This document shows, piece by piece, positions 5,601 to 45,897 of a DNA stretch of 64,000 nt; within the stretch, counting starts at the first letter, position 1; each line of letters begins with the position of its first letter. The notes under the pieces were generated by a model that saw only the letters and a program-made list of their open reading frames with translations, did no database searches and was not told the DNA's origin. Where the stretch lies: assembly GCA_016215325.1 (NCBI GenBank), contig JACRJV010000007.1:3728-67727 (forward strand). The letters run 5' to 3'. Origin of the DNA: Candidatus Uhrbacteria bacterium. GTDB taxonomy: Bacteria; Patescibacteriota; Patescibacteriia; JACRJV01. A program made the position numbers and the translations under genes.

Positions 5601-8600
5601 CGTGACACCGCTGCCGGAGAAATCCGGCGCGCCATAGATGAGCGCCGCGCCAGAGCCGATGTCAGACGCCAAATTTACAACATGACTCGTAACACCGGTG
5701 GTGGTGGAGCCGGTAACACGAATGGCGGTGTCCCAGCCGCTGCCAATCTTCACCGCAGTTTCGGTGGCCGCGTTCGCGGTGATATCCCCAATATTCAACG
5801 CATTATATGTCCCCCCTTGAGGACCCGCAGGAACTAAATTAATTAAATTAATGGTGTCCCCGGCAGAACCATCAGAAGAAACGCTCGCGACCCGCAGTCC
5901 ATCCGCATTGATGGTGCCGTCCGTATACGCCGCGTTCCCTCCGCCGACCGAAATGTTCACCCCTCGCGAATTCACGGTGACACCGGCGACATCCGCTGAC
6001 ATTTGATTGGTAACATCGATGCCCGTCAATGTTTTAGTCCCTGAACCAGAGGCTGGTGTCCCAGGGATTGTTAATGACAACCCGGTAATCGCCGATGTGT
6101 TATCAAGAGTAAGATTTGAACTTAAATCCATTGCCATCCCCGTTATTGCTCCGCTTTGCGTGGTCGCAGAACCAAAGTCCGCGTTGATGAGCGAGCCAGT
6201 CGTCCACTCGGTTTCCAAGGCAAAATCGAGGAATGTTCCAGTGGTCGTGGGGCTAATGGTCAGCGCCCCGCTCATCCCCAGCGTCGTCACATCACTCACG
6301 GCCCCTGCGTTAATATCAATCCCATTAATGCTTTCATCCGTGGCTACCGTGAGTTGCCCAGAGGAGTTGATATAATATGAAGATGAGTGGAACTGTATGT
6401 CTCCTTTGGTGGAGTTAGAGGTGGAGATCAACAGAAGGTCATCGCCACTGCCAGAACCACCGACAAGATCTCCTTGGGTGCCATCAGCAAACAGAGCATA
6501 GTTGGTGGTGGCGCCAGAGGCGGAGAAGTAGCCACCGTAATTAGATGAGGTGGTTCCGGTGTTAGCAACGGTGGAATAGACTCCATACGCCGTGTGCGTG
6601 GCATTGCTGTTGGTACCAGAGCGAGTAAGTTTCAAAAGTGCGGTAGAGCCAGACCCACCGCCCACGGTAGAGGTTGATTCGATAAATACTCCGGTGCCCG
6701 TGGTCAGCCCGTCGGCAGAAATCTGAAGCGCGTCAGCCGTTGAAACAGAGTCAGCCGTAATCTGAGCCGCATCCGTGGTGTTGCCGGTGTAGGTTTGGAC
6801 GAAGGTGCCGGTGCCGGAGGCTAGGGCAAAATTCGCATTGGCATCAATAGTCGTACCGCCGAGCGTAACAGTGCTGTCAACGTTCAAAGTAGATGTGGTG
6901 GAAATAGCACCATCGGCAGTGATGGCTCCGATGCCGCTCATGTCCCCGGTGGTGTTGATGTCCCAGTCAGAGGAATCGATCGCAACAGTATCGCCGCTAT
7001 CGCCGAGATCAACTTGCCCATTGGCATCCAACGCTCCGGCAAGAGTGAGTCCCCCAGTGGAAGTAAAATCCGTACCAGCGTTTCCGATGTTTACGAGAAT
7101 GTTGGCACTAAGATCAATGCCGGTATCCCAACCAGAACCGATACTCAAAGCGGTTTCGGTGCCATTGCCAGCAGTGATATTGCCAATATTAATTCCATAC
7201 AATGTTCCCGCGCCCACTCCAGCAGCCGCGAGGTTGATAATATTTTGGGTCCCGGCGGTGGTGATCGTGCCATTGACAAGACGGATGCCGTTGGCCGTCA
7301 CAGTGTCGCCGGTATTCTGGGTAATGTTGGGCATGGTGATGTTGGCGCCTCGCCAGTTGATGATCGCGGCATTGGCTCCATCGGTAACAGACAGAGCGCC
7401 GGCAGCCGAGATATTGTAGCCGGTGTATGTGGTAGTGACGGCGGAGTCTGCGGCAGTCAAGGCATTCATCACAATGTCTGTGCCGGTGATGTCGAGATCT
7501 GCTGCTCCGGTTAAGTTCGTATCAAAATCAAATTTAAGGCCAGTGATATCCCCTCCAGATTGCGTGGTGACATTGGCAAAATCAGCATTAATAAGGGTGC
7601 CTTGGGTCCATTCAGTTTCGAGTTGATAATCCGTAAATGTGCCGGTGGTGGTTGGAGCGATGGTGAGCGCCCCGCTCATGCCCAACGTCGTCACATCACT
7701 CACGGCCCCAGAGCTCACATCGATGCCGTTGAGGGTTTCATCGGTCGCAAACGTCGCTTGTCCCGAAGAGTTGATAATGTAGCTGGACGAATGGAATTGA
7801 ATGTCGCCCTTGGTCGCATTGGAAGTGGAGACCAAGAGGAGATCATCGCCGGAACCTGTGCCGCCGACCAGATCGCCCTCGGTTCCGTTGGCGACGAGCG
7901 CATAATTCACGATCAATCCAGAGGCAGTCGAAGCCGCGAAGTACCCAGCAATGTTGGTACCGCTGGTGGCGTTGACATTAGTAACCGAGGAATAGATTCC
8001 ATAGGCTGTGTGAGCGCTATTGGCGTTAGTGCCAGAACGGGTCAGTGTGACGAGCGCGGTGTCATCTGATCCCGTACCTACTGTGGAAGTTGAAATAATA
8101 TTCAAAGCATTGCCTGTGGTTAAGCCACTGGCCGTGATCTGGAGCGCATCGGCAGTGGTCACAGAGCTCGCAGTAATCTGCGCCGCATCGGTGGTATCGC
8201 CAGTAAAAGTCTGCACAAACGTGCCAGTGCCAGAGGCAAGGGCAAAATTATTGTTCGCCGCTACAGTTGTGGCACCGGTCAAGGAGACGGGTCCGGTAAG
8301 GGTGATCGTTCCGCTGCTGCCGCCAATGCTAAACCGGCTTGAGCTGGTGTTTACATCGTAAATTTCAAACGCGTTGGCAATTGTGATCGATGAACCTGCG
8401 CGCCAATCGCTCGGGTAGCCGGTTTTAAATTCTATCGTCGCCGGATTTCCAATATCCGTCTTATCTAAGATAAGCATGTTATAGGAAGAGCTACGATCTC
8501 CACCCGAGTCTTTGATAACGAGGTTTGTGGTTGGCGTTGTCGTCCCAATACCAACGTATCCGGAACCTGGGCTTAATACCAGATCATCGCCAGAACTCGT

Positions 8601-11600
8601 AACAATTTCAACTGCGGTGTTGGTATCTTCGTCCAGATCAAATGTTAATGTATTCGTGCCATCGGAAAAAGAAAGCTCGGTGTCTGTAGAATTGACGATT
8701 GTCTCGCCATTTCCCAGAGTGAGCGTACCGTCCAATCGTGTGGTCCCCGCATCCACCCACAAGGCATAGGCATTGGTGATGGTGGCAGGCCCAGCGCCCG
8801 CGCCCGTAGGCGCATTGGCAATATAGAGTGATGCCGCATTGGTTACCGTAAGAGTAGAGGCAGCGGAGAGTGTCGATTGAGCAATATTCAGAAGATTAAA
8901 CCCCGTGGCAGTCGTGATATTTGTAGAGCCAGTGATGGTGGCGGTTGCCGCAGAAAGATCGATGCCGTTCCAAGTGGCGCTGGCGCCTGAGGCAATAGTT
9001 TCGTTACCAGAAATCGCAGGATTTGTGATGGTGGCAGTATTGATCGCAGGACTAGTTAATGTTTTGTTTGTAAGAGTATCAGTAGTCGCTCGACCGACAT
9101 AGGTGTCCGTTCCTTGGAAGGTGATTGTTGTGGAATCCGTACCAGCGAGAGTCAAAGAGTTACTCGCCGTCAGCGTCTTACCATCGGCGATCGTGAGTGT
9201 GCCAGTGGATGCTGTTACTGTAAGTCCGTTGATTGTCTTATTCGTCAGCGCCTCTGCACCCGCAAGAGTGGCGAGCGTACCGGTCGTTGGAAGAGTAACG
9301 TTTGTTGCTCCGGTTGTTGTGAGTGTAAGAGAGTTCGCCCCAGAGGTAATGAGTGCTCCGGCAGTGGTGAGGTTCCCAGCCAAGTTAATCGTGCGAGCCG
9401 CATCGTTGGTGGTGATTGTCAGTATTCGGCCAGCTGTAAGATTCTCAGTGTTGGCAAGAGTGAGATCAAACGCGCCGGTGCCGGTGGAACGAATGCCTAA
9501 GGACGTGAGTGCGTCAGCAGTGCCGCCGTTGATATCTGGACTGGTCAGCGTTTTGTTCGTCAATGTATCGGTCGTGGCACGGCCAACTAGCGTATCAGTT
9601 CCGGTGGGAATCGTGATGGTGCCGCTATTAGAGATGGAGGCGATCACTGGGGTTGTGAGGGTTTTGTTGGTGAGCGTATCGGTTGTCGCGCGGCCGACAT
9701 ACGTGTCTGTTCCCTGAAATGTGATGGTTGTCGCATCTGTTCCTGCCAATGTGAGTGAATTGCTCGCGGTTAAGGTCTTCCCATCCGCGATCGTCAACGT
9801 GGCCGAAGTGGTCGGCGCGGTAATGGCGACCTTATTAATGGATGTTGCAGAAGCAACGCCTAAAGTCGGAGTAACGAGGGTCGGAGACGTCGAAAAGACG
9901 AGATTCGTGCTCGTGGTTCCTGTTGTTCCGCCCGCAGAGGAAAGATAGTTCAACTGTGTTCCCGTCGACGTAACCGATGTTGCTCCAAGTGTAAACGGTG
10001 TGGGAATGGTGACCGTGCCGGTGAAGGTGGGGCTTTCTAAAAATGCAAATGTTTTCCGTGCTGCGCCGGTCGTGATGGTGCCGTAATACGCATCGGTCAA
10101 GAATTCCACGGCCCCGGCTTCGGCAGTGGTCATCAGTGACCCAGAGTTAAACTTGAGCGGCGCTGTGGAAGCGCTGGTGGTGCCAGCTTTGAGGTGAAGG
10201 ACAGCAGTGGGGGTTGTGACCCCGATGCCGACATTTCCATCAAAACGCACAGCCCCATCATCCACCCATAACGCATAGGCATTGGTGATGGTGGCTGGCC
10301 CAGCGCCTCCGCCCGTGGGGGCATTGGCAATATATGCTGTTGCGGCATTCGTCACAGTTAATGCTGAAGCTGCCGAGAGTGTTGGTTGGGCAATATTCAA
10401 CAGATTAAACCCAGCGGCTGTCGTGATGTTGGTGGAGCCGGTGATGGTGGCTGTGGCCGCAGAAAGATCGATCCCGTTCCAGGTGGCACTCGCACCAGAG
10501 GCGATCGTTTCGTTGCCAGAGATCGCGGGGTTGGTAATGGTAGCGGTATTAATCGCAGGACTGGTCAATGTCTTGTTCGTGAGCGTATCCGTGGTGGCTC
10601 GACCGACAAGCGTATCTGTTCCGGTGGGGATCGTGATAGTACCGGAGTTGGAAATGGAAGCGATCACGGGAGTTGTGAGTGTTTTGTTGGTGAGCGTATC
10701 CGTCGTCGCCCGGCCAACATACGTGTCTGTTCCTTGAAAGGTGATTGTTGTCGCATCTGTTCCTGCCAATGTGAGTGAATTACTCGCAGTCAACGTTTTC
10801 CCATCGGCGATCGTGAGGGTGGCCGATGTTGCCGGCGCGGTAATCGCCACCTTGTTGATTGAGGTTGCGGATGCAACGCCTAGTACGGGGGTAACAAGCG
10901 TCGGGGTTGTGGCAAATACCAGCGCTCCAGAACCGGTTTCATCGGTGAGTTGTCCTGAAATGCCCGAAGATGCGGTAGTAGCGGTCACGGCACTCGTGCC
11001 ATTGCCGATTAAGATGCCTGAGAGCGTCCCCGCTCCAGTACCTCCTTGAGCAACCGCTAATGCAGTGGTTAATCCCGAAATCGACGTGATGTCCGAATTT
11101 GCTCCCGATGCGGCGGCGCCTAAATTTGCTCGCGCATTCGCGGCGGTTGTTGCGCCAGTGCCGCCGTTAGCCACTGCAATCGTCGTCCCATTCCAGGTCC
11201 CGGCCGTGATCGTCCCAACCGTCGCAATGTCGGTACCCACCAGTTTTGAAGCCGCAATCGAGCCCGTGAGCATGCCATTCGTGACCGATCCGGTATCACC
11301 AGTGGTGACAATAGTACCACTGACATTGGGAATGCTCAGCGTTCGGGTTGCCCCCGCGCTTACACCGGAGATTTGGAATGCGAGTTGCTTGGTTGTGTCG
11401 CTATCGTCTTGGATAACGAAGTTTGTATCTTTCAACGTCGCTGCGTTCGTATTATCAATCGTCTTGTTGGTGAATGTTTCACTACCGGCAAGGGTCGCAA
11501 TAGTGCCGGTGGTCGGCAAGGTGAGGGTCGTCGCCCCCGTTGTTGCGAGCGTTAGGGCATTCGCTCCGGATGTCGTGAATGCCCCCGCAAGCGTGAGATT

Positions 11601-13899: not shown

Positions 13900-14196
13900 T
13901 TAATTTTCTGGGTACACCTTCTTCCCGTCTTTATTATACAAGAATATGGCCAGCGTGGGGCACGATTCTGCCGAAGCTTTGAGCGTTTCGTCGTCCACCG
14001 TGAGCCATTCGGGCTTAATGATCGCTTTGGCGTCGTTGTCCAACTCATACACATCGGGAGCAACGGCTATGCAACTGGCTGCCCCAATACAGAGCTCTCG
14101 ATCGACAACAACACGGGTAAATTGCCGACCGCTGGATGTCGTAATAGTCTCTTTGTTGAGAGTAATATTATTAGAATCAGAGCGAGAGGCATCCAT
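13900..14196 (-). CDS. Ferredoxin, single-cluster CxxAxxC...CP type
   Basis: The sequence ...RELCIGAASCIAVAPDVYELDNDAKAII...ESCPTLAI matches Pyrococcus/Bacillus-type mono-cluster ferredoxins, which have three Cys and a CP motif. Confidence 0.55.
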   Translation of the reverse strand: MDASRSDSNNITLNKETITTSSGRQFTRVVVDRELCIGAASCIAVAPDVYELDNDAKAIIKPEWLTVDDETLKASAESCPTLAIFLYNKDGKKVYPEN

Positions 14197-14269
14197 AAGT
14201 ATTGAGCAAGATAAGCATTACGTCGTAGCTTAATTTACTTATTTTACTTATCTCGCTTATCTTGCTCGC
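14195..14269. repeat. Copy A of a ~40-bp palindromic element (AGCTTAATTTACTTATTTTACTTATCTCGCTTATCTTGCT) with a truncated inverted partner
   Basis: The full unit is at 14227..14269. The partial inverted arm ATAAGTATTGAGCAAGATAAGC is at 14195..14216. The element abuts the fdx start codon. Related copies are at 35871..35947 and 39981..40074. Confidence 0.7.
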
Positions 14270-15293: not shown

Positions 15294-15368
15294 TGGTGCG
15301 CGTGCCTGGGATCGAACCAGGGACCTTCTCATTATCAGTGAGACGCTCCACCACTGAGCTACACGCGC
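15294..15368 (-). tRNA. tRNA-Ile (anticodon GAT), with CCA encoded
   Basis: The sequence is GCGCGTG-TA-GCTC-AGTGGTG-GAGC-G-TCTCA-CTGATAA-TGAGA-AGGTC-CCTGG-TTCGATC-CCAGG-CACGCGC-A-CCA. The arms form a clean cloverleaf. Confidence 0.9.
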
Positions 15369-16051
15369 GCAATCGCTTCTTGATAACAATCAGTCATTGC
15401 TTTCATTGCCATCATTATTTTTCTTTTCAGTCCAGTGCTTGGGACATATACCGCACAGGTGCCGTGACCATGACTGTATGAGTAAGAAAAACTCGATGGA
15501 CGCAACGTTCTGATTTGGTGTTTATAAAACTGACTCTCATCAATTCCTGCCACATTCTCCCAAAACTTAACCTCTTTGGAAATGTCCATCGATTCATAAA
15601 GGTGGAGCTGCAAACGAATCTGCCGTCGACTGATACCATAGAACTTCCCTATCCAAGCGATAAAGAATCGGATTACACCGGGGTCGGTATTAGCAAGGTG
15701 AACTCGAAAAGGATTCCGTTTTTCGCCTTCGCCTAAATATAATACAAGCCCTGCGACAAAGCAAGACTCTGTTGAGAGGTGTTTGAATTGATCAACATAT
15801 TCCAAATACACGTTCTGGTCAGCCTGTCTCTTCTTTTCACGCATGGCATTTCTATATCGCTCTCGGCTGGCCTCACCGCTGAGCCAATTTTTCCTTCGTA
15901 ACTCTAGTATTTTTTCTTCGGTAAGCGGGAATTCTCTCAACCAGTAGCTCAGGGTACTTTTTGGTACGCTCAATTTTTTCATTATTGCAGTGTAACTCAT
16001 CTCTTCTTCTACTCGCAGTCGCACTGCTTGATTGCGAAGTTCAGCGTTCAT
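15359..16051 (-). CDS. HTH plus LAGLIDADG-type homing-endonuclease-like protein (230 aa), encoded in the 16S-tRNA-Ile spacer
   Basis: There is an N-terminal HTH (...SYTAIMKKLSVPKSTLSYWLREF...) followed by FVAGLVLYLGEGEKR, a LAGLIDADG-like motif. The stop codon overlaps the first 10 nt of tRNA-Ile. Confidence 0.5.
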   Translation of the reverse strand: MNAELRNQAVRLRVEEEMSYTAIMKKLSVPKSTLSYWLREFPLTEEKILELRRKNWLSGEASRERYRNAMREKKRQADQNVYLEYVDQFKHLSTESCFVAGLVLYLGEGEKRNPFRVHLANTDPGVIRFFIAWIGKFYGISRRQIRLQLHLYESMDISKEVKFWENVAGIDESQFYKHQIRTLRPSSFSYSYSHGHGTCAVYVPSTGLKRKIMMAMKAMTDCYQEAIARV

Positions 16052-16504
16052 AAAGATACGATGATCAATGAACCATTGTCATTATATATTAGCATAACCT
16101 TTTCTAGAGTACAACTTTTTTACCGATTTACTAAACTTCGTATGGTGAAGAGTTGTCGATACAAAAAGCCGCCCTTGTGAGGCGGCTTTCGCTTGCCCCG
16201 CAGCGATTGCTCAGGGCGAAGTTGACTCAAGAAACGTGATAGCAATGACGTCACCCGATCATTTGATCGGGTCATTCGTTGGTGGAGTACTGCCGCCCTC
16301 AATGCGCGCTGAAAGAGTACAGCAGTATTCCACCAACAAATGTCGACTTGGACTTTCGTCCAAATTACTCCCTAGAAAGGAGGTGATCCATCCACAGCTT
16401 CCGCTACGGATGCCTTGTTACGACTTCGTCCCTGTCACCAATCCTACCTTCTGACGGTTGTCCGCCATTCGGGTATTATCGGCTCCCTTGACGTGACGGG
16501 CGGT

Positions 16505-17239
16505 ATTACGATCACAACAATCTTATGATTGTTGTGTCACTGATCACCACTGGGCAAACGGCTTTCCCGTACCCTAGCGGTTCCCAAATATCGTTATTGT
16601 TTTCTTCCCGTTCCTCCGCGCCATCTCGCGCAACGCCAGAATTTTTGAATATCCGGTGTCGCTCAGATGTTCTTTCTTCGCGATGATTTCCACCACGCGT
16701 CGAAAGATGTTGAAGGATTGCTGTTTTTTCGACTGAAGAGGGTGTTGTGCCTTCTCCGTCAACAAAACCCACAACATAGTGTGGCGGTAACGGTCGGAAA
16801 TGATAATTTGGTTTCACTCCTTCCCCAGAAAAACTTCTGAGTACTATGAGATCTGCTGACTTCTTGTACTTCATAAGAATGCTTGTTTCCAAACACTCCG
16901 CCATCACCTCGTGATTAATTCATCACGATGTAGTATACCACAATTTGATGATGGAAGGTACAAGATCTCCCTGGGTCACGAACAAGAATAATTGTCTCTA
17001 TCGGGATCCTAATCACATACAGCATTTTGTGTTCGAATAATTTCCCCCTGTACGCGCGGGGTCATCCAAACTGTATGCCACCATTGATTCACGCTAAAGA
17101 CTGCGTCCGAACTCTCGTCAGAGCCCTCGCGGGCACTGGCGTGTTCTTTGCTTCAAGTCTTTCGAACGAGACTTGGTCGGATTTCCTGCCTGCCGACAGG
17201 CAGGTCACCAACATTCGTTGTCCGCTACCAGGCGGTCCG
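16505..17239 (-). mobile_element. Intron/IVS inside the 16S rRNA gene, inserted between the GUACAC and ACCGCCCGUC segments near E. coli position ~1397
   Basis: The boundaries are unambiguous by alignment to the universal 16S sequence. The intron begins GGACCGCCUGG and ends ...CGUAAU, so it shows neither the group I terminal G nor the group II GUGYG. Its class cannot be determined by eye. Confidence 0.8.
16512..16907 (-). pseudogene. Degenerate LAGLIDADG homing-endonuclease ORF inside the 16S intron, probably frameshifted
   Basis: The 131-aa ORF contains ...HYVVGFVDGEG, a LAGLIDADG motif, but then turns low-complexity. An overlapping ORF in a second frame (16574..16777) carries the endonuclease-like continuation ...SFNIFRRVVEIIAKKEHLSDTGYSKILALRE... 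Confidence 0.5.
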
Positions 17240-17550
17240 TGTACAAAACCCGAGAACGTATTCACCGCGGCGAGGCTGATCCGCGATTACTAGCGATTCC
17301 TGCTTCATGAGGGCGAGTTGCAGCCCTCAATCTGAACTGGGGGGTGATTTGATGGGATTAGCTCCAGCTTGCGCTTTGGCGGCCCATTGTAGCACCCCAT
17401 TGTAGCACGTGTGTCGCCCAGGACGTAAGAGCCATGCTGATTTGACGTCATCCCCACCTTCCTCCCCCTTGAGGGGGGCAGTCTCGCCAGACACTTGTAA
17501 CTGGCAATAGGGGTTGCGCTCGTTTCCAGACTTAACTGTACACCTTACGG

Positions 17551-17583
<33 letters not shown>

Positions 17584-17695
17584 TGCACCCTCGAAGGTCA
17601 CACGTTTCCGTGCGCTTGCAGCATCATGTCAAGCCCTGGTAAGGTTCCTCGCTTATTGTCGAATTGAACCACATGCTCCACCGCTTGTGCGGGTT

Positions 17696-17744
<49 letters not shown>

Positions 17745-19037
17745 GATACTTAAGGGGTTACCTTTGATAAACGACACTGGGAGGGTCGATACTCCCAATG
17801 TCTAGTATCCATCGTTTACGGCGTGGATTACGCGGGTATCTAATCCGCTTCACTCCCCACGCTTTCGTCTCTCAGCGTCAGATCCGTCCTAGTATGCTGC
17901 TTTCGCCTTTGGTGTTCCTGCCGATATTAACGCATTTTACTACTACACCGACAGTTCCGCATACCTCTTCCGGCCTCAATCCTGACCATCTCTCCCGCAG
18001 CGCCGAAGTTAAGCTTCAGCATTTAACAGAAGATGCATCAGGACGCCTACAGACGCTTTACGCCCAATAAATCCGGATAACGCTTGAACCACTCGTATTA
18101 CCGCGGCTGCTGGCACGAGTTTAGCAGGTCCTTATTCCCACCATACCGTCAGAAATCGGGGATCGGATATCGGAAATCGAAACGGAGGAATCCGACTTCT
18201 GATCTCTGAACCCCGACCTCTTCTTCTGGTGGAAAAGCAGTTTACACTCCGAAGAGCTTCATCCTGCACGCGGCGTCGCTCCCTCAGACTTTCGTCCATT
18301 GGGGAAGATTCTTGACTGCAGCCTCCCGTAGGAGTCGGGCCAGTATTTCAGTGCCCGTGAGGCGGGTCGTGCTCTCACACCCGCTACCCGTCGTCGCCTT
18401 GGTGGGCTTTTACCCCGCCAACTAGCTGATAGGCCATAGGCCCCTCTCCGAGCGGATTGCTCCGTTACTCCAAAACTCTTGCGAGAATGGAGACCATTGG
18501 GAATTAGCGTCTCTTTCGAAACGTTATGCCCATCTCGAAGGTAGGTTACCAATGTGTTACTCACCCGTTTGCCACTCTGCGCGCTCCGCGCTGAAATATC
18601 GATATATCGAAATATCGAAATGTCAGTGCGAAGCACGCAGCGTTCGACTTGCATGCCTTAGACACGCCGCCAGCGTTCATCCTGAACCAGGATCAAATTC
18701 TCAAGAAGATTGAATGTTGATTGCTCAACGGTTCAATATACTGTTCCTAAGAACAGATTTGGTTGCTTAGTTATTTTGTTGAATTGACGTATTGCTATCA
18801 CGTTTCTTGTTTCAACCTTACATTGTTGTCTACCCAATTTTCAATGTACGATCCCTTGAGAGAGAAAAAAATACACCCGCCCATGTGCTTCCAGCGCATC
18901 CGTAAATCCACACATAGACTGGCTGTAGAATGTTTCCGTATTGTTGGCCGTTTGGGCCATCCCCAAGGGGCAACGGGTAGTATGACGGAAACAAAAGCCG
19001 GTGTCAAGAGCAAGTCTGAGATGCAAATACATCTCCG

Positions 19038-22185: not shown

Positions 22186-22218
22186 AGAAATAACCCCGCA
22201 TTGCGGGGTTATTTTTTA
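22186..22218. terminator. Bidirectional intrinsic terminator between the convergent FN3-protein gene and trmD
   Basis: The hairpin reads AAATAACCCCGCA-TTG-CGGGGTTATTTTTT and is flanked on both sides by A/T runs. Confidence 0.75.
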
Positions 22219-22962
22219 CTTATGGCGCGCATACTTCTTGCGCCACTGCTCTATTTTTTTGTGATCGCCGCTTAACAAAACGTTGGGAACGGTCAACGTC
22301 CGAGGGTTGAGTTTCTTCTTGCCCCTATACCCCATACCCTGAACCCTGATCGCTTCCGGCCGTGTATACTGTGGGTACTCCACATACCCTTCCGTGGAAT
22401 GCGTTTCATTCACAATCGATTCTGGGTCCCCTACCACCCCGGGGATCATGCGGCTCACGGCATCGATCACAACAAGTGCGGGCAGCTCCCCACCCAGTAA
22501 CACATAGGGGCCGATGGAAATCTTCTCATCCGCAAATTTATACACGCGCTCATCAAAGCCCTCATAGCGACCACAGAGCAGAACGAGCTGGTCGTATGTT
22601 GTCAACCGTTTGGCCATTGCCTGAGTGAGTTGCTTGCCGGCGGGGTCGAGAGCGATGACACGAGTACGAGTTCGAGAGTTACGAGTGACGAGTGACGAGT
22701 GTGGCGACGTTTTTTTCGTAACCCGTAACCCGTAACCCGTAACCGTCTCCAAACACCGTATCATAATATCCGCCCGGAGGATCATTCCCGGCCCCCCGCC
22801 ATAGGGCCGATCATCCACCACATGGTGTTTGCCCGGCGCATAATCGCGCAAGTTATGGACCCGGAAATCCAAAAGTCCCTTCTTTTGAGCATGCTTCAAC
22901 AAGCTCTCATTCAGATACGGCGGGAACAATTCCGGGAAGATGGTGATGATGTCGAATACCAT
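22216..22962 (-). CDS. trmD: tRNA (guanine37-N1)-methyltransferase TrmD, carrying two in-frame repeat-derived insertions
   Basis: The sequence ...VDDRPYGGGPGMIL...LLCGRYEGFDERV...GGELPALVVIDAVSRMIPGVVG... identifies TrmD. The ORF is open from 22983, but the likely start is MVFDIITIFPE. Confidence 0.9.
   Translation of the reverse strand: MVFDIITIFPELFPPYLNESLLKHAQKKGLLDFRVHNLRDYAPGKHHVVDDRPYGGGPGMILRADIMIRCLETVTGYGLRVTKKTSPHSSLVTRNSRTRTRVIALDPAGKQLTQAMAKRLTTYDQLVLLCGRYEGFDERVYKFADEKISIGPYVLLGGELPALVVIDAVSRMIPGVVGDPESIVNETHSTEGYVEYPQYTRPEAIRVQGMGYRGKKKLNPRTLTVPNVLLSGDHKKIEQWRKKYARHK
22659..22745. repeat. Heptamer repeat block ((ACGAGTG)n ... TTTTTTT ... (CGTAACC)n) inserted in-frame inside trmD
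   Basis: The nucleotide sequence ACGAGTACGAGTTCGAGAGTTACGAGTGACGAGTGACGAGTG-TGGCGACGTTTTTTT-CGTAACCCGTAACCCGTAACCCGTAACC is translated as GLRVTKKTSPHSSLVTRNSRTRTRV, which is absent from E. coli TrmD. A second in-frame motif CCCCTATACCCCATACCCTGAACCCTG lies at 22323..22348. Confidence 0.7.
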
Positions 22963-22985
22963 AGCATGGGAACCATAATGCAAAT

Positions 22986-23053
22986 ATACAAATCAATTCG
23001 AATGCTACAAATATTCGTTGTATTTGCATCCATTCGCATATTCGCATTATGTT
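22986..23053 (-). promoter_or_regulatory. Conserved ~70-bp leader/promoter element. A second copy is at 45830..45897 upstream of yraN.
   Basis: On the minus strand it reads CATAATGCGAATATGCGAATGGATGCAAATACAACGAATATTTGTAGCATTCGAATTGATTTGTATATTTGCATTATGG. The two copies are about 80% identical and each ends 14-20 nt before the likely start codon. They contain a GCGAAT direct repeat and a possible TTGTAG-16-TATATT promoter. Confidence 0.5.
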
Positions 23054-24618: not shown

Positions 24619-25608
24619 TTATTCTTTAATAATCTTAATTCTTTTGAGCGTGTTCAGCCCGGGCATTCTCTTCATAATCCCATGCTTGGGACCCATTTCC
24701 ATGATAACCAGACCGCTGTTATAGGACGCTAACCGCAATGATACCGGGATGTCTCCTTTAAATTTAATATAGCCTGCAAGAAACGCACTGCCAAATGCGT
24801 CACCGGCACCCGTGGTATTAATCGGCTTTTCCGCACTGCGCGCCTCTACAACATAGCGGCCGCCCTGTTCTGCCCAAGCAAACGCGCCGTGCTTCCCATC
24901 CGTGACAAGGATAACCCCAAACCGTGATCGATGCAACGTGTTGTAAATGCCTTGGATATTGTCAGGGAGTTTTTTGGTCAGCTGCGCCGCTTCTTCGCGA
25001 TTGACCATCAAAATATGGACCCCCGAATCAAAGGACTCGATCGCCTCCCAGCCCCATTCCAGCTCCCCCACCCCGGGATTCCACATGACCTTCACATTAT
25101 AGAATGTTGCCCAATCGACCAGATGCCGGAAAAATTCTCTGTTGCCGGCCAACGAGGTCACATAGAGCCACTTCGTCTTGAGTTGGTGGATCGGGAAATC
25201 GTCCCAGACAAAATGATGGGACGCCCCGCGATAGACGAGCACCGTGCGCTCGCCTTCGGGGGTGAGTAAGATGCTCGAATAGGCCGTACCATGTTCATGG
25301 TCAATATGAAGGTATCGGCAATCAACGCGCTCGTGTTTGAGCACGCGCAGCACTTCCTGCCCGGCCGGATCATTGCCGGCGCGCGAGACAATGCCGGTTT
25401 TGAATCCTGATCTGCGCAATGTGACCGCAGCATTCGTGGCTCCGCCGCCCGTATCAAACACAACCGAATCGAGCTCCACCTTAGCCCCTAATGCAAAACA
25501 TTCGCCCCTGCCGGTTGCGAATTTTTTAGAAGAAACAATCTGAACATCTTTCTGGATCAAAAAAACATCTTGCGTGGAGCTGCCGATGGTGACAATATCG
25601 AATGTCAT
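24619..25608 (-). CDS. PfkB-family carbohydrate kinase (ribokinase-like)
   Basis: There is an N-terminal GG motif and a C-terminal ...NTTGAGDAFGSAFLAGY... DxxGAGD motif. Confidence 0.75.
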   Translation of the reverse strand: MTFDIVTIGSSTQDVFLIQKDVQIVSSKKFATGRGECFALGAKVELDSVVFDTGGGATNAAVTLRRSGFKTGIVSRAGNDPAGQEVLRVLKHERVDCRYLHIDHEHGTAYSSILLTPEGERTVLVYRGASHHFVWDDFPIHQLKTKWLYVTSLAGNREFFRHLVDWATFYNVKVMWNPGVGELEWGWEAIESFDSGVHILMVNREEAAQLTKKLPDNIQGIYNTLHRSRFGVILVTDGKHGAFAWAEQGGRYVVEARSAEKPINTTGAGDAFGSAFLAGYIKFKGDIPVSLRLASYNSGLVIMEMGPKHGIMKRMPGLNTLKRIKIIKE

Positions 25609-25611
25609 AAT

Positions 25612-26016
25612 TTAGTTTTTGAGTGACGAGTTGCGAGTGACGAGTTTTTGTCGCTTTTGCTCTTCAAGATATGAAATGAGTGCGCCCACTCTCTTGGCTA
25701 AGAGTTCCAACGTATTATTGGTGCCATCAAACTCGGATTGAGAAATATGCCCCACTGAAAGGGCAATGTGCAGTTGATTGCGGACCTCACCAATTGAACC
25801 TCTGGCACTCCTTAAGAAACGGCAAAACTCATTATTATTTCTTTTCTCAAACCCTTCAACAATGTTAGAACTGATGGAAATTACCGCTCGCCGTATTTGG
25901 TCTCGCAATCCGAAATCTTTAGAAAATTTTTCTTTTGCTGATAAATCATAGATAACTTTGGTGTTTTCTAAGCTCATTTGCCATATCTCTAAATCTTCGA
26001 ATCGCGTAATATTCAT
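25612..26016 (-). CDS. Four-helix-bundle protein (TIGR02436 / '23S rRNA intervening-sequence protein' family)
   Basis: The sequence ...KFSKDFGLRDQIRRAVISISSNIVEGFEKR...FLRSARGSIGEVRNQL... is characteristic of this family. Confidence 0.75.
   Translation of the reverse strand: MNITRFEDLEIWQMSLENTKVIYDLSAKEKFSKDFGLRDQIRRAVISISSNIVEGFEKRNNNEFCRFLRSARGSIGEVRNQLHIALSVGHISQSEFDGTNNTLELLAKRVGALISYLEEQKRQKLVTRNSSLKN
25613..25650. repeat. Left inverted-repeat arm flanking the four-helix-bundle gene (GAGTGACGAGTTGCGAGTGACGAGTTTTTGTCGC)
   Basis: It is about 80% complementary to the arm at 26020..26062. It belongs to the same family as the trmD insert. Confidence 0.65.
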
Positions 26017-26019
26017 AAC

Positions 26020-26062
26020 TCATCACCCGTAACTCGTAACCCGTAACTCGTAACCCCTATAC
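26020..26062. repeat. Right inverted-repeat arm (CACCCGTAACTCGTAACCCGTAACTCGTAACCCCTATACCCTAAACCCTATTT)
   Basis: GTAAC(C/T)C heptamers are followed by a CCCTATACCCTAAACCC block, which resembles the in-frame inserts in nfo and at the trmD C-terminus. Confidence 0.65.
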
Positions 26063-26114
26063 CCTAAACCCTATTTATCAACATGCCCGACGCCTGCGCT
26101 TATTATACACCAAA

Positions 26115-35859: not shown

Positions 35860-35870
35860 ACGAGCACGAT

Positions 35871-35947
35871 AAGTGAATTAAGCAAGATAAGCCCGGCCGT
35901 CGCCACAGCTTAATTTACTTATTTTACTTATCTCGCTTATCTTGCTT
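35871..35947. repeat. Copy B of the 40-bp palindromic element
   Basis: AAGTGAATTAAGCAAGATAAGC, a 14-nt spacer, then AGCTTAATTTACTTATTTTACTTATCTCGCTTATCTTGCTT. It lies 12 nt upstream of the rpiB ATG. Confidence 0.7.
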
Positions 35948-39067: not shown

Positions 39068-39972
39068 ATTGATGGCTTACGAAATTTTTTGAGGACCACA
39101 ATATCCCGAGGTCGCTTCTCTTCTGTCGGTGTTTCTAAAATTAAATCGCAATGCTGGAGTTTTTTGTTTTTGACGATCGCTTCAAAAGCCGGTAGACCGA
39201 TATAACCATCACCTAAGTCCGCGTGGCGGTCCACGTGGGAGCCGAATTCCACCTTGGAGTCGTTGCAATGGAAGACGACCAGGCGATCAAGGCCGATGTT
39301 CTTCTCAAACTCATCAAACACTTTTTTCTGGGTTTCTTTTGTGCGCATATCGTAGCCCGACGCAAAGGCGTGTTGGATGTCGAAGCACACGCCCAGACGA
39401 GGGTTTAGGGTAGAGGGTTTAGGGTTCAGTTTCTTTGATGTCCCCGCCTCCACGCCGGTGATGATTGCGGCAATTTCGTCGAAGGTGTCGCCCATTATCA
39501 ATCCTGCTCCGGCGGAGATTTCTAACAACAGTTGGCAGGACCCCGTATAGCCGTCCAAAATGTTCTTCACCCCTTCGATCACCATTTGCATTCCTCGCTG
39601 TTGCGCCGCTTCGGCAGAAAGCCCACTTTTGAGGAGATCGTTGGCGCTGCCAAGATGCGTCATGAGTGCTTTAACGCCGAGTACACTCCCGCGTTCTAGT
39701 TCTTCACGGACCACGGCGATGGTTCCGTACCGCGTCCGATTATTGCTCGAAGCAAAATTTACATAGTAGGGCGCATGGATGTACGCCGCCTTCTGGCGGT
39801 GTTGTTCCATCGCTTCGCGAAACAGCCGAATCGCCTCGTCGTCGAGTGTGCGAGCCGGCCCGCCTTGCGGAGGCCGCGAGAAAAACTGAAACGCTTCTCC
39901 GCCAATCTTGGCGGAATTTTCTGGAGCATTGTGCAAGCCCCCGGCAGCGGAGATGTGAGCGCCGAAGAACAT
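39064..39972 (-). CDS. nfo: Endonuclease IV (Nfo) with an in-frame repeat insertion
   Basis: The sequences FGAHISAAGGL, LLEISAGAG, GVCFDIQHAFASGYD, FHCNDSKVEFGSHVDRHADLGDGYIG and LILETP match E. coli Nfo. Confidence 0.85.
   Translation of the reverse strand: MFFGAHISAAGGLHNAPENSAKIGGEAFQFFSRPPQGGPARTLDDEAIRLFREAMEQHRQKAAYIHAPYYVNFASSNNRTRYGTIAVVREELERGSVLGVKALMTHLGSANDLLKSGLSAEAAQQRGMQMVIEGVKNILDGYTGSCQLLLEISAGAGLIMGDTFDEIAAIITGVEAGTSKKLNPKPSTLNPRLGVCFDIQHAFASGYDMRTKETQKKVFDEFEKNIGLDRLVVFHCNDSKVEFGSHVDRHADLGDGYIGLPAFEAIVKNKKLQHCDLILETPTEEKRPRDIVVLKKFRKPSI
39401..39429. repeat. GGGTTTAGGGTAGAGGGTTTAGGGTTCAG heptamer repeat inserted in-frame in nfo
   Basis: The repeat is translated as ...SKKLNPKPSTLNPRL... 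and replaces the short DKSRV loop of E. coli Nfo. It shares KKLNP...NPR with the trmD C-terminal insert. Confidence 0.65.
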
Positions 39973-39980
39973 ATTTGCGG

Positions 39981-40074
39981 AGCAAGATAAGCGAGAAAAG
40001 TAAGATAAGTAAATTAAGCTTGCTGGCGATCGGGCTTATCTTGCTTATGTTACTTATCTTGCTTATCTCGCTCG
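39981..40074. repeat. Copy C of the 40-bp element, present as a complete inverted pair
   Basis: AGCAAGATAAGCGAGAAAAGTAAGATAAGTAAATTAAGCT, a 13-nt spacer, then GCTTATCTTGCTTATGTTACTTATCTTGCTTATCTCGCTCG. It lies 8 nt upstream of the nfo ATG. Confidence 0.75.
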
Positions 40075-45810: not shown

Positions 45811-45829
45811 AAAACATAATGCCAATTTA

Positions 45830-45897
45830 CAAATTCATTCGAATACTACGAATACCAAATTTGCTGTATTGGCATTCATTCGCATATTCGCATTATG
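45830..45897 (-). promoter_or_regulatory. Second copy of the trmD-type leader/promoter element
   Basis: On the minus strand it reads CATAATGCGAATATGCGAATGAATGCCAATACAGCAAATTTGGTATTCGTAGTATTCGAATGAATTTGTAAATTGGCATTATG... It directly abuts the yraN start. Confidence 0.5.

Follow-up and report, generated by a model that had tools for sequence, protein, structure and literature searches.

A four-helix-bundle protein gene between inverted heptamer arrays in Candidatus Uhrbacteria, with the layout of an rRNA intervening sequence

Introduction

Intervening sequences (IVSs) carrying an open reading frame (ORF) of the S23p type interrupt the 23S rRNA of Leptospira, Coxiella burnetii, Brucella and Haemophilus at helix 9, 25 or 45, and for some 30 years they have been called selfish elements of unknown origin. 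The protein family, PF05635, is represented by two crystal structures dating from 2006-2007, and to our knowledge it has no assigned function outside diversity-generating retroelements (DGRs). Heptanucleotide repeats of cyanobacteria appear under the name STRR in older literature. Here we describe a PF05635 gene that stands outside rRNA, between inverted arrays of a 7-nucleotide (nt) unit, in a 64,000-nt stretch of a Candidatus Uhrbacteria genome (GCA_016215325.1, contig JACRJV010000007.1, positions 3,728 to 67,727), the whole of which is called the window below; the gene together with its two arrays, or arms, is called the cassette.

In the Coxiella IVS, (GACAGAT)n heptamers directly precede the S23p ATG in a copy number that varies between strains, and RNase III cleaves at the first repeat (PMC4990558). 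Heptameric repeats as such were reported in 2007 to be over-represented in bacterial genomes, as the introduction of PMC4692102 states; that paper describes the heptamers of Xanthomonas (GGGAATC) and Nostoc (GGGGAYT) as enriched and often convergent, makes no mention of a PF05635 gene and gives no established explanation for the excess.

Results

A PF05635 gene with inverted heptamer arrays at both ends

The cassette in the window has the following features.

25612..26016, minus strand: 134-amino-acid (aa) four-helix-bundle ORF ('23S rRNA intervening-sequence protein', S23p, Avd-like), from PF05635/TIGR02436 profile matches
26016..26056, minus strand: 5' (right, sense) arm, tandem GTTACGR, 5.6 copies, up to the ATG, from Tandem Repeats Finder (TRF; period 7), inverted-repeat pairs and fold
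25621..25646, minus strand: 3' (left) arm, CTCGTCA/CTCGCAA heptamers, 3.7 copies, from inverted-repeat pairs, TRF and fold
26055..26074, minus strand: second repeat array (sense AGGGTTT/AGGGTAT) on the outer side of the 5' arm, lengthening the predicted stem base, from TRF, sequence and fold

The original prediction, made by a model from the DNA letters and ORF translations, had assigned the 134-aa product to the rRNA intervening-sequence proteins, and profile searches agree, with matches to PF05635 (E 4e-30, 104.5 bits vs a cut-off of 33.8; Pfam) and TIGR02436 (E 2e-27, 95.8 vs a cut-off of 24; NCBIfam). The protein is 100% identical to the NCBI entry 'four helix bundle protein [Candidatus Uhrbacteria bacterium]', and two homologue searches, with about 1,100 and about 7,800 matches listed, show how large the PF05635 family is. 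Beyond PF05635 it has no significant Pfam match, DUF2524 being weak and below its cut-off, and the Pfam search gave no signature of an HUH (IS200/IS605-type) transposase; the window holds no second PF05635 copy.

An AlphaFold2 model of the protein (pLDDT 92.4) was matched by Foldseek to XCC0516 (PDB 2GSC; E 6e-7, template-modelling (TM) score 0.76/0.87, root-mean-square deviation 1.6, TM range 0.76-0.90), and also to BT_0352 (2RLD) and bAvd (4DWL; TM 0.68-0.86, about 10% identity). Sequence identity is 34% to XCC0516 and 22-24% to BT_0352. Both of these solved homologues contain five chains, and by analogy the cassette protein is probably pentameric and Avd-like.

The fold similarity to bAvd, together with the finding that no other Pfam family is seen as often as PF05635 near DGR reverse transcriptases (PMC10053308), raises the question of an Avd accessory protein of a DGR. 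However, a motif scan of the window found no reverse transcriptase, the neighbouring genes encode PfkB, a 2-hydroxyacid dehydrogenase and hypothetical proteins, no neighbour recurs across the Patescibacteria loci described below, and PHROGs and PADLOC gave no match for the protein. We give this reading almost no credence, and a DGR Avd identity was rejected for the window locus, where neither a reverse transcriptase nor template or variable repeats were found.

The arms had been proposed to be two of about 40 bp, about 80% complementary to each other. They are in fact unequal, at about 41 nt vs about 26 nt, and 83% complementary over 24 nt in two registers. Inverted arrays do lie at both ends of the ORF, but they do not simply bracket it: the left arm is coding, lies within the last 12 codons and gives the C-terminal tail LVTRNSSL. 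At the other end, the last units of the 5' arm (GGGTGATGAGTT) hold the only Shine-Dalgarno-like stretch. The expected folding of the arms into a stem was recovered, with arm-arm pairing in both the minimum-free-energy and the centroid fold of the sense RNA (z = -3.65; 0/100 shuffles as stable), and the predicted pairing covers the Shine-Dalgarno-like stretch and extends to the AUG. The 3' arm is a stop-free variant of the canonical CGTAAC unit, arrays of which contain TAA in every frame within three units (derived by hand from the sequence, not by script).

Nor are the arms unique to this locus. Their core GTRACGAGTT has 14 matches in the window where 5.0 +/- 2.0 would be expected, a count that 0/100 shuffles reach, and the matches are concentrated at the cassette and in trmD. 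The window arrays consist of tandem 7-nt units in at least 2 copies and form convergent pairs, which places them among heptameric simple-sequence-repeat hairpins. A G-quadruplex reading of the GGGTTAC repeats was rejected, as most family members alternate A and G and lack four G-tracts.

The gene and its arms across Patescibacteria

Homologues 43-69% identical were collected at 80 Patescibacteria genome loci, 75 of which were usable for arm scoring by an ungapped inverted-repeat score, with flanks displaced by 500-1700 nt as controls. This score replaced RNAduplex energies, which failed to separate real from control flanks (-38.8 vs -37.0 kcal/mol) because long loops were allowed. At nearly all 80 loci, a tandem array of a 7- or 8-nt unit (RTTACG or RTTAACG) runs into the ATG and an inverted array stands at or just past the stop codon. 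Flank pairing lay above the 99th percentile of the controls in 65/75 loci, the locus's own partner arm beat the arms of other loci, likewise in 65/75 (Wilcoxon p 1.5e-12), and 87% of 1703 arm positions are Watson-Crick pairs. Divergent lineages have different yet complementary units (GGCTAGTT/AACTAGCC, AAGGTTG/CAACCTT, AAGTTCA/TGAACTT, and 9-mers in L103), a covariation of whole arms.

The cassettes have a polarity on the coding strand, G exceeding C in the 5' arm at 61/63 informative loci; a single reversed case was seen in a metagenome contig. They are co-oriented with both neighbours in 82% of Patescibacteria loci, with median gaps of about 40-50 nt, and 0/80 homologue loci are located in 23S rRNA (a positive control worked). 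Protein and repeat unit are correlated (57/81 against 34 expected). Unit length, 7 vs 8 nt, differs between proteins that are 77-80% identical, and every unit of either arm has changed alike. The arrays are homogenised by some process.

Within the common 8-nt unit GTTAACGR lies the palindrome GTTAAC, which gives a TAA on either strand; three such units place a stop in all six frames, and 8-nt arms therefore insulate translation both ways. At loci with 8-nt arms, translation of the cassette gene usually ends at the TAA in the first 3' unit. Database homologues have C-terminal tails (…VTRNS, …SVIRNS) and N-terminal extensions (RISDCGF, IHYELRI) that result from translation of the arms.

Duplication, decay and selection

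Two cassettes of genome UBA12141 (L026 and L033) align over 472 nt at 90% identity, the alignment ending exactly where the outer ends of the arms lie, and have unrelated flanks; the arm-ORF-arm block is the unit of duplication. A 190-nt element of the same genome matches the cassette over 46 nt at its 5' end (96% identity) and over 56 nt at its 3' end (87.5%), the latter stretch taking in the final ~25 nt of the ORF, with a loop of 108 nt in between; it is an internally deleted, cargo-less derivative of the cassette. UBA12141 holds two full copies and at least two cargo-less ones, and in the window these arms occur at two loci within 64 kb. Other hairpins without cargo but with arms of the cassette type were found at L006, L007, L028, L037 and L054; a strict regular-expression search for such hairpins returned one element only and missed the window's own hairpin in trmD. 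Cassette ends fade into degenerate AT-rich units.

Values of dN/dS between 0.06 and 0.10 in homologue pairs show purifying selection on the ORF. Counted by eye, the arms of L026 and L033 are identical over 42 + 27 nt despite a dS of 0.53, and 37 nt of arm, again compared by eye, are common to a copy at dS about 1.2. Arm sequence has changed less than synonymous sites and less than expected under neutrality, and its identity at dS 0.53 implies that the arms are constrained or homogenised.

A cargo-less hairpin in trmD

The second locus with these arms lies inside trmD.

22216..22962, minus strand: trmD host gene, 248 aa as annotated at NCBI
22717..22744, minus strand: 5' arm of the cargo-less hairpin, (GGTTACG)x4, TRF 100% match, 26/28 identical to the cassette 5' arm
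22702..22716, minus strand: hairpin loop, sense AAAAAAACGTCGCCA, from sequence and fold
22676..22701, minus strand: 3' arm of the cargo-less hairpin, (CTCGTCA)n, the stop-free GTCAC variant as in the cassette, from TRF, fold and alignment

The suggestion that this insert is the same pair of arms joined without cargo stands, as both arms align to those of the cassette, the loop is short and the whole is in frame. The insert (22676-22744) reads (GGTTACG)x4, A7CGTCGCCA, (CTCGTCA)n, folds as a hairpin (z = -3.83), and also aligns to the cassette 3' arm plus about 13 nt interior of that arm. It lengthens a surface loop between GGGPGM and VIALDPAGK by about 20 residues; TrmDs without the insert exist (P0130, P0132, P0141, P0168).

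GTCAC replaces canonical GTAAC in both the cassette and the trmD hairpin. As this variant avoids the TAA of CGTAAC arrays (hand-read from the sequence), it makes read-through possible in trmD; its presence in the cassette, where it is not needed, suggests that the two loci have a common origin or have exchanged sequence by gene conversion.

The same two TrmD loops hold (AAATCCG)4 + (AAAATAC)4, (AAAACGC)3, (ATATCGA)4 or an (AAGCTRT) hairpin in 60-70%-identical relatives. To judge from these sequences, TrmD surface loops are general hot spots for repeat arrays, and the insert in the window could stem from a local repeat-generating process rather than from insertion. In Patescibacteria, TrmD genes of relatives (L101, L102, L103) have in these two loops in-frame 7-nt arrays of many different units, which encode IRNPKSEIRNPKQS, RNSKFVIRNS and YRISNIEYR, with protein lengths from 212 to 267 aa. 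L103 carries a PF05635 cassette at 1939-2313 with 9-nt arms (AGTAAATCA / TGATTTACT) that adjoins khpA-trmD; a 16S gene follows shortly after trmD there.

A second heptamer family, AGGGTTT/AGGGTAT (a plant-telomere-like unit), occurs at 22322-22350, 26055-26074 and 39399-39426. The first copy is translated in frame as part of TrmD's C-terminal loop (IRVQGMGYRG), and the last is in frame, on the opposite strand, in the AP-endonuclease-2 gene (KKLNPKPSTLNPR). A relative with 70% identity (P0122) likewise has the peptide LNPKPSTLN in its TrmD loop.

Could gene and repeats have met by coincidence? Heptamers born by slippage might be tolerated at gene borders and in loops, acting at most as generic terminator or insulator hairpins, with PF05635 an ordinary gene and the trmD hairpin unrelated to it. 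The 137 arrays of 7-8 nt, in many units, that lie outside cassettes in 81 Patescibacteria loci are in keeping with this, as are the unrelated arrays in the TrmD loops of relatives and the metagenome contigs with (GTTACGR)n, of 32-73% GC, that mostly lack a PF05635 ORF. However, the association is specific to this one gene family and has a direction: 87% of the 75 loci and 12/16 loci of other phyla have inverted arrays touching start and stop, a pattern absent from flanks 500-1700 nt away; the borders of the duplication are arm ends; arm polarity is fixed relative to the ORF; and the trmD arms share the idiosyncratic GTCAC variant with the cassette in addition to their 26/28 identity. We therefore rate coincidence as quite improbable.

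Other phyla and true rRNA intervening sequences

Sixteen loci outside Patescibacteria were taken from plasmid records, and 12 of them have inverted arrays, the other four having a 3' array only or direct arrays. The arm units are GGGAAAA/TTTTCCC, GGGAACA/TGTTCCC and GGCAGGG/CCCTGCC in Nostoc, GGGTGTA/TACACCC in Calothrix, TCAGAAT in Trichormus, AAGGTTYA in Riemerella and GGAGATA in Picosynechococcus. The arm-ORF-arm layout occurs in at least four phyla besides Patescibacteria and recurs, with different units, in Cyanobacteriota, Bacteroidota, Gammaproteobacteria and an alphaproteobacterial 23S IVS. This last, one of the 12 (L087, Azospirillum lipoferum 4B), has a PF05635 ORF and inverted arms of GGACAGA/GGACGGA units inside 23S helix 45 (Rfam large-subunit (LSU) rRNA match, 2529 bits). 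The likening of the window cassette to an IVS is borne out by this real helix-45 IVS, which shares the layout, and by the Coxiella IVS, whose heptamers abut the ATG (PMC4990558).

Orthologues of XCC0516 (85-86% identical) are encoded between accB and accC, in the same orientation as these genes. Their arms, of the GGGAATC type, are complementary at 26/30 positions, and this unit is the very heptamer repeat described for Xanthomonas in PMC4692102. PF05635 copies were also found within cas10-cmr3 and cas6-cas4 operons; at the cas6-cas4 locus of a Pseudanabaena plasmid (L082), (AAAAGCT)x12 upstream and (AAAAGCC)x10 downstream are in direct orientation, and in Calothrix PCC 7716 (L090) the AAAAGCT unit is present only at the gene's 3' end. 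Full-text literature searches found no general link between PF05635 and repeats, which may stand in literature beyond their reach.

Genomic surroundings and other repeats in the window

Two features adjoin the cassette.

24619..25608, minus strand: PfkB-family kinase gene (PF00294, E 6.5e-38), its ATG 4 nt past the cassette stop codon
26435..26472, minus strand: palindrome without mismatch, resembling a terminator (AAAAACATCCCGATG-AAC-CATCGGGATGTTTTT), at the end of the upstream gene

Because the pfkB ATG lies 4 nt past the cassette stop codon, the two are probably co-transcribed, and since the palindrome parts the cassette from the upstream gene, the cassette probably comes first on a transcript of its own with pfkB. 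The cassette is flanked by protein genes, and the window contains no LSU (23S) rRNA. Among the relatives compared there was no clean empty site; the closest syntenic relative, L101, has neither pfkB nor cassette, and L103 holds its cassette at another position than the window's copy.

At 15294-18708 the window has a 16S rRNA gene (17225-18708, minus strand), then a match to group II intron D1-D4 (16817-16900) and tRNA-Ile (15294-15368). Downstream there is no 23S gene, its place being taken by genes for a helix-turn-helix protein and an RNase H-like exonuclease; on this arrangement the rRNA genes appear unlinked, with an intron remnant in the spacer.

An intergenic element of ~80 nt made of 9-nt repeats (CTTATTTTA / CTTATCTCG) occurs at 14195-14266, 35863-35946 and 39980-40063, 85-95% identical and with one copy inverted; the copy at 39984-40072 forms a hairpin just upstream of the AP-endonuclease gene. 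By its sequence, this is another small dispersed repeat family. A repeat of ~85 nt with (ATTCGCAT)2, 81% identical, is found at 22971-23051 and 45812-45897, one copy covering the trmD start and upstream. Between genes at 2598-2627, (TCCAATA)x4 is followed by a short complementary stretch (CGTTATTGGGGA), in the same hairpin style with another unit. Internal protein-coding repeats at 6156-8249 and 8750-10922, 67-82% identical over 360-690 nt, are probably tandem paralogous domains or genes.

Discussion

The observation of an inverted-array cassette at the window locus is confirmed, and its interpretation is supported in part. We lean, with some reserve, towards a free-standing hairpin cassette of the IVS type that moves slowly, is transcribed together with host genes and has a stem that would be processed by RNase III. 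The gene of an Avd-like protein would form the loop of a long hairpin with imperfect pairing; each arm is a tandem array of the same 7-9 nt unit, with the G-rich side 5' on the coding strand. Such a cassette would insert, or survive, in sense orientation within transcription units and be transcribed from the host promoter; at the window locus, it would head the transcript with pfkB. Arm pairing in the RNA would hide the ribosome-binding site and the AUG, and RNase III would cut the stem as in rRNA IVSs, freeing the ORF-bearing loop from the flanking RNA. Internal deletion turns such cassettes into cargo-less hairpins. The trmD hairpin would be a relative of the cassette arms, able to persist in an essential gene because it keeps the reading frame, falls in a surface loop and is built of the stop-free unit variant. 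The simplest route of movement would be recombination between arms and pre-existing hairpins of the same unit. We favour the IVS-type cassette because its anatomy is common with that of true IVSs, because it is sense-oriented in transcription units and because its start site is predicted to be sequestered.

Several results weigh against this account. Among arm mismatches on the sense strand, 52 are G:U and 61 are A:C, with no wobble signature; this lack of a G:U excess counts against a sense-RNA stem because selection on such a stem should favour G:U. The unit sequence (RTTAACG / RTTACG) is kept across very divergent Patescibacteria, a conservation that, as judged from the sequences, exceeds the need of a sequence-blind RNase III substrate. 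That A:C is as frequent as G:U and that the unit is conserved beyond pairing together argue against a purely RNA-structural role; the conservation fits sequence-specific recognition, possibly by the encoded pentamer. A signature-motif scan of the 64-kb window found no RNase III. In TrmD, the tandem repeats that relatives carry in the same loops are of unrelated units and in some cases are not hairpins, and the trmD insert may therefore not derive from the cassette.

The metagenomes weigh on the same side. A scan with the query (GTTACGR)2GTTACG returned >120 contigs; a third of the informative (GTTACGR)n contigs have a complementary array nearby, and only 2/120 with (GTTACGR)3 have an adjacent PF05635 ORF. 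In one of those two (L108), the ORF has different arms of its own and the GTTACGR array lies further downstream. Arrays vastly outnumber cassettes; the dependence runs from gene to repeats and not the reverse. An ORF-placement test of the metagenome arrays is invalid, since (GTTACGR)n has no stop in any of the three sense frames but stops in every antisense frame.

The evidence on mobility is divided. The original prediction had seen a small non-autonomous mobile cassette whose empty form can integrate into genes. The arm-to-arm duplication of 472 nt supports movement, but orthologous cassettes are positionally stable in related genomes (L037/L050, L068/70/71), which makes movement rare and mobility slow at best. 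No target-site duplication was seen, in that no direct repeat was found by eye at the L026/L033 flanks or the trmD insert and no dedicated search was made; no transposase was seen with the cassettes, again with no dedicated search, and the full-length form encodes the four-helix-bundle protein only. A classical miniature inverted-repeat transposable element (MITE) was rejected, as terminal inverted repeats are present, but a transposase-bearing parent is not and no target-site duplication was seen by eye. 'Non-autonomous' was a guess; the factor that matters may be the encoded protein. As to the empty form, deleted and cargo-less copies do exist, but integration into genes is put in doubt by the unrelated arrays in the TrmD loops of relatives.

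The arms might instead act at the DNA level, as terminal inverted repeats or cruciforms by which host recombination or repair moves or homogenises the cassette, RNA processing being irrelevant. The equal frequency of G:U and A:C mismatches would follow, as would unit-length changes in all units of both arms at once, the arm-to-arm duplication with its internal-deletion derivative, and a GTCAC variant at two loci that suggests gene conversion. Yet no recombinase is associated with the cassettes, co-orientation with neighbours and the fixed polarity of ORF and arms point to a constraint at the transcript level, and the arms of rRNA IVSs are experimental RNase III substrates (PMC4990558); we hold this account to be unlikely.

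A possible, though not a likely, alternative that overlaps with the favoured IVS-type cassette is a cognate system of protein and repeat, in which the pentamer would recognise its own arm units as RNA or single-stranded DNA, one protomer per unit, and would either autoregulate in the manner of TRAP or maintain and spread hairpins in trans, the cargo-less hairpins being dependants of the protein. Such a pattern in the genome is what tied RAYT transposases to REP/REPIN elements. The arms are kept in sequence beyond what pairing demands (identical at dS 0.53; 37 nt common at dS about 1.2), the unit varies between phyla together with the protein, and arms of 3-6 units face pentameric solved homologues (2GSC, 2RLD). 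The absence of a G:U bias and the stop-free GTCAC in both cassette and trmD, where only trmD needs it, point the same way. So do Avd, which belongs to a complex of RNA and protein that includes the DGR reverse transcriptase (PDB 8UB7 and related entries), and the heptamer-rich taxa Xanthomonas and Nostoc (PMC4692102), which also have PF05635 genes with heptamer-array arms. However, unit length switches between 7 and 8 nt among 77-80%-identical proteins. For many other units of these genomes the sequence at hand contains no PF05635 partner, and co-inheritance alone would also explain the protein-unit correlation (57/81 vs 34 expected). It also counts against such recognition that bAvd reportedly binds nucleic acid without sequence specificity.

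In a wider form, which we consider doubtful, PF05635 would be the trans-acting partner of bacterial 7-9 nt tandem-repeat hairpins at large. Each pentamer would read its own unit, and cargo-less hairpins, including intergenic ones, ORF-less IVSs and in-gene ones such as that in trmD, would be its dependants; rRNA IVSs, the heptamers of Xanthomonas, cyanobacteria and Patescibacteria, and Avd would be branches of one nucleic-acid-binding system.

The link between gene and repeats joins three puzzles, the orphan PF05635/S23p family, rRNA intervening sequences and the unexplained heptamer excess of bacteria, because the PF05635 gene lies almost always within a repeat hairpin, be it in rRNA, the accBC operon, CRISPR operons or the gene strings of Patescibacteria. 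For annotation, it explains the repeat-derived tails and N-terminal extensions of PF05635 proteins and the repeat-encoded loops (IRNPKS..., LNPKPSTLN...) of essential Patescibacteria proteins. PF05635 copies in tractable organisms, such as XCC0516 with (GGGAATC)n, open the reading to direct experiment.

Compared with described systems, the cassette protein has the fold of bAvd and probably the same pentameric, RNA-contacting barrel (4DWL, 8UB7), but identity is about 10% and the window locus is without reverse transcriptase, template or variable repeats. Like Rickettsia palindromic elements (RPEs) and in-frame MITEs, the trmD hairpin is a short palindromic insert translated as a surface loop of an essential protein. 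RPEs, in contrast, are non-repetitive palindromes of 100-150 bp, whereas the trmD insert consists of two short tandem arrays with no sequence relation to them, and relatives of the window organism carry other repeats at the same loop. The REP/REPIN-RAYT systems likewise have one gene between inverted copies of a hairpin-forming repeat that is otherwise dispersed and cargo-less; RAYT, however, is an IS200/IS605-type HUH transposase and the cassette protein a four-helix bundle without known catalytic activity, and the cassette arms are tandem arrays where REP is a single palindrome.

The Xanthomonas and Nostoc heptamers are tandem 7-nt units, often in convergent pairs and mostly intergenic near the upstream gene, as are the arrays here; they have been treated as G-quadruplex-forming and not tied to PF05635 (PMC4692102), whereas here such arrays are the arms of a gene cassette. 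XCC0516 (2GSC) and BT_0352 (2RLD), pentamers of the 'S23 ribosomal protein family', share the fold (TM up to 0.90), and the literature searched contained no mention of flanking repeats together with either; the XCC0516 orthologues have their own inverted heptamer arms within accB-accC, with GGGAATC in place of the window's GTTACGR. Closest are the rRNA IVSs, which have the same protein family, a stem-loop with the ORF in the loop and short tandem repeats reaching the start codon. The window cassette differs from them in lying between protein genes, 4 nt upstream of pfkB and not in rRNA, in having an ORF of a type under purifying selection where the Coxiella ORF is reported as decaying and untranslated, and in that RNase III excision, shown for rRNA IVSs, is here inferred. 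It thus lacks the 23S location that defines an IVS, yet it is like an IVS in every feature testable here.

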